Source: Schmidtea polychroa
Taxonomy: Eukaryota
Direction: 5' to 3'
Length of the DNA: 64,000 nt
Assembly (NCBI GenBank): GCA_044892525.1
Contig: CM097885.1
Location: forward strand, 27,034,001 to 27,098,000
Shown piece by piece: positions 15,130 through 15,644 of the stretch. The notes below the pieces were generated by a model. The model ran no database searches. It saw nothing but the letters and a program-made list of their open reading frames with translations, and was not told where the DNA came from. Made by a program: the position numbers and the translations under genes. The stretch's first letter is position 1, and every line of letters begins with the position of its first letter.

Positions 15130-15644
15130 TTATTTAAAAAAACGACATAAAACATATAAAATAGCAACACCTGTTGCAAATTTTACATAGTTTTTAAATT
15201 GGATTTTTTGCTGATCTAATTCTTTTGCATTTCTGGCGAGTCGATTCAGCACGCCCCATCCGCCATTGGCTTCAATCCATGGCTGAAACTTTGACTTGAT
15301 TATCTAGAAAATATATATTAATAAAATATAGATTATAAAAGTATTACTTCTTGAGACCACTGATAATAGTGCTCGGAATCCAATAGGCTTTTTTCAATTA
15401 TTATCTTCATATAAGCGAACCCTACTAATATTCGGGTCCACTTCATCTCCTCGTCGCATAAGCAATTAAATATTCTATTAAAATAGAATTTCTTTGTTTC
15501 GAGGGAATCGGAATTGAGGACGTCCTCATAATCAATGTGATTACCTTCTATAATCTTTTCGGTCCGATCGACCAGGAAAATTAGGCTTTCCATAATATTC
15601 TTGTTGATGAGTTCTCTGCACATATTTTCCATTAAATTAGACAT
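15130..15644 (-). CDS. Bcl-2 family protein encoded by the Polinton (156 aa, 2 exons)
   Basis: Exon 15348-15644 has BH1-like LCDEEMKWTRILVGFAY; after 44-nt intron 15304-15347, exon 15130-15303 has BH2 WIEANGGW and tail anchor FATGVAILYVLCRFFK. Confidence 0.88.

Follow-up and report, generated by a model that had tools for sequence, protein, structure and literature searches.

A Maverick/Polinton element of the planarian Schmidtea polychroa carries a probable spliced Bcl-2-family gene of likely host origin

A 64,000-nucleotide stretch of the Schmidtea polychroa genome (GenBank assembly GCA_044892525.1, contig CM097885.1, positions 27,034,001 to 27,098,000 of the forward strand; hereafter the window) overlaps a complete Maverick/Polinton element, in which we identified what is very probably a genuine, spliced two-exon Bcl-2-family gene. 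As to its history, the scenario that we hold to be reasonably probable is that a non-canonical host paralog was captured via mRNA and then acquired a new spliceosomal intron, within a wider run of intron gain that includes the integrase core, the protease and a RING gene of the same element, with sister families differing in intron presence and the element becoming dependent on splicing. That Mavericks can carry Bcl-2 cargo is already known, and the value of this case lies in a donor that can be traced and in an intron that was likely gained.

A two-exon Bcl-2-family gene

The gene lies on the minus strand, where an ATG at 15644 opens 99 codons that run to 15348 and are followed, after an intron, by 57 codons in another frame and a TAA ending at 15130. 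The spliced product is thus 156 amino acids (aa) long (99+57), and the unspliced open reading frame (ORF) is 103 aa. Its relatives comprise three subfamilies of two-exon copies, A (to which the window gene belongs), B and C, and an intronless family D, described below. The features of the gene, including the Bcl-2 homology (BH) regions, are as follows.

15348..15644, minus strand: exon 1 of 99 codons, with helices predicted as far as the beginning of BH2 (ORF and structure model)
15304..15347, minus strand: GT-AG intron, 44 nt, GTAATA...TTCTAG, phase 0 (sequence and conserved boundary in relatives)
15130..15303, minus strand: exon 2, 57 codons plus TAA, with the end of helix 6, BH2, linker and tail anchor (sequence, PDB search and hydropathy)
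15432..15443, minus strand: BH1-like KWTR, Trp and Arg retained, Gly replaced; RWSR in the host paralog (sequence comparison)
15256..15279, minus strand: BH2 motif WIEANGGW, with no intron after it (sequence)
15136..15186, minus strand: C-terminal stretch of 17 residues predicted as a membrane anchor, with a hydropathy of 1.67 (Kyte-Doolittle)
15698..15707, minus strand: CCAAT-box-like site, common to subfamilies B and C and family D (sequence alone)
15672..15681, minus strand: TATA-box-like site some 30 nt upstream of the ATG, common to subfamilies B and C (sequence alone)
15125..15130, minus strand: AATAAA, likely poly(A) signal overlapping the stop codon, present in B and C too (sequence)

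The original prediction had extended the 103-aa ORF to 156 aa by removing a 44-nt GT-AG intron, and had named a BH1-like KWTRILVGFAY, a BH2 motif WIEANGGW and a tail anchor in a Bcl-2 homolog of a virus-like element; coordinates and frames are confirmed, and all three features are present in the spliced product. The best 17-residue Kyte-Doolittle mean of the predicted anchor is 1.67 in subfamily A, 1.66 in B and 1.44 in C. Searched separately against the PDB, exon 1 had Bcl-2-A1 as its top match (weak, E 0.05; A1 made up six of the eight matches) and exon 2 had Bcl-xL (weak, E 0.046; 40 of 40 matches from the Bcl-2 family). As the two matches are independent of each other and fall in successive parts of the family, the Bcl-2 likeness is more than chance. 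With the Pfam Bcl-2 profile (PF00452, cut-off 31.4 bits), exon 1 of the window gene alone remained below the cut-off at 15.4 bits (E 0.028), and the loci of subfamilies B and C, translated across the intron, scored 33.8 and 34.5 bits. BH1 and BH2 stand in the same order and spacing, in a gap-free register, as in two relatives, the host paralog L095 and the metagenome contig L141 (both below); the canonical BH1 signature NWGR is not matched, as KWTR has its Trp and Arg without its Gly. As to the Bcl-2 fold, which the original prediction had proposed as a check, a weak six-helix model of exon 1, with a predicted local distance difference test score (pLDDT) of 66.5, had top ten Foldseek matches that were all of the Bcl-2 family; for a family D model the top 29 VIA rows were all Bcl-2 folds. 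Each of the three relatives retrieved from databases is an exon-1 fragment, 103-112 aa in length, illustrating how ORF-based annotation misses or truncates genes with such short introns.

To assess the intron, 80 loci were compared, of which 58 match both exons, the other 22 being host genes, intronless family D copies and one locus of the Burro retroelements. A GT..AG pair occurs at the same codon boundary in all 58, which represent three subfamilies (~100%, 72% and 66% exon-1 identity) and not 58 independent cases; the background for GT plus AG at two fixed places is ~0.002. The intron varies in sequence and in length (32-131 nt, with remainders modulo three of 0 or 2), and read-through meets a stop in 58/58, after a tail of four residues in subfamily A and hydrophobic tails in B and C. 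Twenty more diverged loci (31-49% exon-1 identity), chosen from 150 rows because their match ended near the boundary, have GT at the projected boundary in 17 cases and, as judged by eye, an AG followed by an exon-2-like start in 15, with unrelated intron sequences; in 11 of the 20 another Maverick gene lies within the 2-kb stretch.

Purifying selection acts on both exons. In comparisons of single copies from A, B and C, the nonsynonymous and synonymous values (pN/pS) were 0.14/0.81, 0.19/0.75 and 0.16/0.70 for exon 1 (pN 0.14-0.19, pS 0.70-0.81) and 0.11/0.55, 0.24/0.52 and 0.16/0.46 for exon 2 (pN 0.11-0.24, pS 0.46-0.55), with no such synonymous excess in shifted-frame controls of either exon. 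Moreover, exon 1 residue 97 corresponds to residue 114 of L141 and exon 2 residue 1 to its residue 117, such that the two exons abut gaplessly. The junction 15347/15304, offered in the original prediction as a check, was looked for in the contigs of four of the 14 listed runs and not seen there, no record with the sequence being listed as RNA; in run X1 contigs pass through the intron. Given the strong comparative evidence, splicing of the 44-nt intron is nevertheless very probable.

Host paralog, likely capture and likely intron gain

A search with the Pfam Bcl-2 profile recovered cellular genes, Burro domains and Maverick copies. The best match to the window gene outside the elements is L095 (G000:C1:268.544 Mb), at 28% identity over 107 columns (E 6e-16), the next host row being at E 5e-4. 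This host paralog is single-copy among the 150 scored matches, scores 46.2 bits against the Pfam cut-off of 31.4, and has no Maverick gene match in its 20-kb surroundings. Its first exon ends in GGW followed by GT, and the tail is on a second exon ~3 kb further; a separate exon for the tail is the usual Bcl-2 layout (PMC7022251). Exon 2 of the window gene crosses this host intron site without a break, and its own intron is placed 16 codons upstream of it. L141 encodes, without interruption, a relative of 175 aa that shares 47% identity with L095. As a separate observation, the host genome also contains seven near-identical Bcl-2 genes with the canonical NWGR in a single cluster (L051-L057, G000:C4:89.9-90.8 Mb).

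Family D (L089-L093, L098-L099) is a second Maverick family whose PolB is ~58% identical to that of the window element. Its Bcl-2 gene is intronless, encodes 144 aa, lies beside TBP-like and 136-aa-like genes, is 46% identical to L095 (alignment A2) and reaches 32.7 bits with the Pfam profile, over the cut-off of 31.4; its cysteine-free tail is more weakly hydrophobic (1.25). In the second tree, the split copies (support 89/95), the intronless copies (97/96) and the donor-like pair (83/88) each group together, and all nine are set apart from six other host rows (86/91). A single Maverick origin obtains support of 46/0, so that one capture and two captures are both possible.

Together, these comparisons indicate that the window gene was likely captured from one host paralog, of the L095 lineage, through a spliced mRNA, because the usual intron after GGW is absent from the element gene. 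The present intron was then likely gained 16 codons upstream, in one Maverick lineage after capture, given that sister family D has no intron there; gain is the simplest account in that loss of an older intron from both family D and the host gene needs more events. With the donor, an intronless Maverick copy and intron-bearing copies in one genome, host-gene capture and intron gain can be traced directly.

The BH1 change can be followed along the same lines: the residues are RWSR in L095, KWSR in L141, CWSK in family D, TWSR or KWSR in the diverged split copies and KWTR in the window, and one decayed family D variant (L105) has the Gly. As the Gly is absent from L095 and L141 too, it was already missing in the donor lineage. 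The original prediction had noted NWGR as changed to KWTR; the departure itself stands, but by this sequence comparison it is mostly a legacy of the host paralog rather than a change made on the viral side. In NWGR, the Gly and Arg are described as important to interactions within the family, and ORFV125, which has SPGR, still binds, with Puma binding ~250-fold weaker (PMC9027176). For pro-survival action, the motif is evidence neither way.

The Maverick/Polinton element and its other genes

The element and its remaining genes are listed below (E-values from Pfam profiles; strand given where it applies).

1..17463: Maverick/Polinton, 19,483 bp, with its start at L081:7981, 2,020 bp to the left of the window, defined by terminal inverted repeats, target-site duplication and genes
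16203..17463: terminal inverted repeat of the right end, sharing 93% identity with its left counterpart over 1,276 columns, termini AGTAG..CTACT
17464..17469, plus strand: target-site duplication TAAATT, 6 bp, the same six bases preceding the left end
539..4516, minus strand: long PolB-like ORF (polymerase motifs by eye; Pfam gives only a weak Endonuclease_7 match)
7397..7785, minus strand: adenain-type protease, likely 41-nt intron at 7780-7740 (Peptidase_C5, E 3.5e-6, over the cut-off)
7813..9033, minus strand: likely major capsid protein of 406 aa (Atlas, score 0.98; among the top clusters, one with 15% double jelly-roll-like domain)
10407..11486, minus strand: rve integrase, likely 63-nt (ATT)n intron at 11098-11036 (rve, E 1e-5)
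12100..12726, minus strand: A32-like packaging ATPase (Pox_A32, E 3.6e-7)
12826..13263, plus strand: TBP-like gene, in the same accessory block as the Bcl-2 gene (TBP, E 1.3e-15)
L081 9193-9786, minus strand: IAP-type RING gene inside the left end of the element, likely 45-nt intron (zf-C3HC4_3, E 1.5e-9)

The rve integrase, A32-like ATPase and adenain protease are those by which Maverick/Polinton elements are recognized; the ORF at 539..4516 is a putative PolB, to judge by its polymerase motifs. The rve match is under its own cut-off and is split by the likely intron, and the likely major capsid protein had no PDB sequence match. The Bcl-2 gene is present in hundreds of genomic copies, those of subfamilies B and C occupying the same slot of their Maverick elements, and the 40 matches scored out of 1,510 candidates are all 98-100% identical over 701 nt, which indicates that the element family spread recently. 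The IAP-type RING gene lies just left of the window; a search of the 39 other ten-kb stretches gave no match to it, and no BIR domain was seen in it.

Four genes of the element, for Bcl-2, protease, integrase and RING, likely contain introns. In the protease gene, an intron-like stretch of 41 nt, GTAAG..AG, comes after the start codon (7740-7780, minus strand), and the same layout recurs in 5/5 other matching loci, family D included. The integrase has a GT..AG stretch of ATT repeats (11036-11098, minus strand) inside a core motif, with a short duplication on both flanks; it measures 63 nt in the window and 56, 87, 36, 69 and 54 nt in L083, L109, L114, L115 and L119, and is absent from L088 and L092. 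As five of these six lengths keep the frame, read-through as poly-Ile is also conceivable.

Further observations concern the surroundings of the Bcl-2 gene. A 165-aa gene (15750-16247, plus strand) lies head-to-head with it, is hydrophobic at both termini and 84-95% identical in other copies; its product may be a surface protein. A 136-aa gene (14115-14525, plus strand) has no Pfam match and is retained even in family D (26-33% identity). At L096-L097 (G000:C1:203.69-203.70 Mb), the accessory block is present twice, in inverted orientation and ~8 kb apart, around PolB fragments, forming a palindromic derivative. Elsewhere in the window, host-type ORFs on the minus strand encode a TIR domain (38876-39394), a proteasome subunit (56016-56612) and a protein kinase (61650-62450).

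Predicted function and comparison with known systems

We lean, by somewhat more than an even chance, toward the tail-anchored product being a pro-survival decoy that restrains mitochondrial cell death during copying and insertion of the element. Host RNA polymerase II would transcribe the gene from a promoter suggested by the conserved CCAAT and TATA sites, and the host spliceosome would then take out the 44-nt intron. To judge from the sequence matches and the weak models, the 156-aa product would fold as a compact Bcl-2 bundle whose tail is predicted to insert in the mitochondrial or endoplasmic reticulum (ER) membrane. Its groove, with the BH1 Arg and without the Gly, might bind BH3-only or Bak/Bax-type proteins of the host, its specificity being narrow or weaker. 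Cells could thereby survive the stress of linear DNA replication and of breaks made by the integrase, favouring spread of the element with or without particles. Viral Bcl-2 proteins mostly work by groove binding (PMC7022251), and we count the IAP-type RING gene in the same element toward this reading. If the protein is pro-survival, its hundreds of copies might affect how the animal controls cell death.

The main competing account, which we consider unlikely but the most serious of the alternatives, accepts the spliced gene and holds that guarding the BH3 groove is not the task of its protein: it would imitate the host paralog that lacks the glycine, or compete with it, in autophagy, in the maintenance of mitochondria or ER or in innate signalling, as do some poxviral Bcl-2 folds. 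However, subfamilies A, B and C all retain the membrane tail, BH2 and the BH1 Arg, poxviral proteins of the signalling type generally have no tail, and the row for A49 ranks level with those for Bcl-xL and BOK. It is improbable that the protein is instead a Bok/Bax-like pro-death or membrane-permeabilising factor acting late in the release of particles: the killer BH3 motif, Leu-x-x-x-Gly-Asp in helix 2, is absent from that helix in every subfamily examined, the CCAAT and TATA promoter is of host type, and hundreds of genomic copies would presumably be costly if leaky. We also give very little credence to a gene that is unspliced or not expressed today, either as a silent passenger or as a 103-aa exon-1 product with a short hydrophobic read-through tail; the missing junction, the intron-spanning contigs of run X1 and the hydrophobic read-through tails of B and C speak for it, whereas purifying selection acts on exon 2 in the spliced frame, intron length shifts the frame freely (remainders 0 and 2) and the subfamily A read-through tail is just four residues.

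The original prediction had the element blocking host apoptosis and took this to fit a real infectious cycle. Such a cycle is compatible with the findings and not implied by them: Burro long terminal repeat (LTR) elements of planarians likewise carry BCL2-like and BIR motifs (PMC6431247), Bcl2 and IAP homologs have already been reported in adintoviruses (PMC8502044), and relatives of the gene turned up in 0/304 pattern stretches of IMG/VR viral contigs, which proves nothing either way.

The closest precedent are these adintoviruses, animal Maverick/Polinton elements in which Bcl2 and IAP homologs were observed by Starrett et al. 2021 (PMC8502044), hence the same element type with the same kind of cargo. 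In Fig. S2 of that paper the label Bcl2 appears three times, in rows beside Astyanax and Steinernema labels; its main text as available does not mention splicing or trace a donor gene, and the portion of the supplement searched, which may hold more, has no match for planarian, Schmidtea, Dugesia, flatworm, Girardia or Macrostomum. A later preprint (10.1101/2024.03.25.586562) mentions anti-apoptotic homologs in mammal-associated adintoviruses. In the literature we found no description of this Bcl-2 gene in planarian Mavericks.

Relative to the cellular family (PF00452; L095 and L141), the window gene has BH1, BH2 and tail in the same register and shares the glycine-less BH1, but differs in its shorter N-terminus, the lack of an intron after GGW, the new intron 16 codons upstream and the hundreds of copies in a mobile element. 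With the viral Bcl-2 mimics (adenovirus E1B-19K, KsBcl-2, ORFV125, A179L and F1L; PMC7022251, PMC9027176) it has in common a small Bcl-2 bundle, here a predicted one, in a double-stranded DNA virus-like genome and a BH1 that may deviate. Unlike these, its donor is still recognisable in the same genome and its function is a predicted one; to E1B-19K no sequence link is shown, one Atlas row at 0.84 being a lead only. The vertebrate Mavericks described by Barreat and Katzourakis 2021 (PMC8097293) are alike in terminal inverted repeats, 6-bp target-site duplication, core genes and purifying selection; however, the intact ones are described there as having no introns, in contrast to the likely short introns in the Bcl-2, protease, integrase and RING genes of the window element. 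The giant Gypsy elements Burro/GYPSM1 (PMC6431247) are also planarian mobile elements with BCL2-like and IAP-type parts, and Bcl-2-like domains within very long ORFs (up to ~3,090 codons) at L101, L102, L103, L117 and L118 fit such retroelements. The Burro domain is part of a polyprotein in an LTR retroelement and, on its long branch, is far from the Maverick gene; both big mobile-element classes of this animal carry death-regulator domains.
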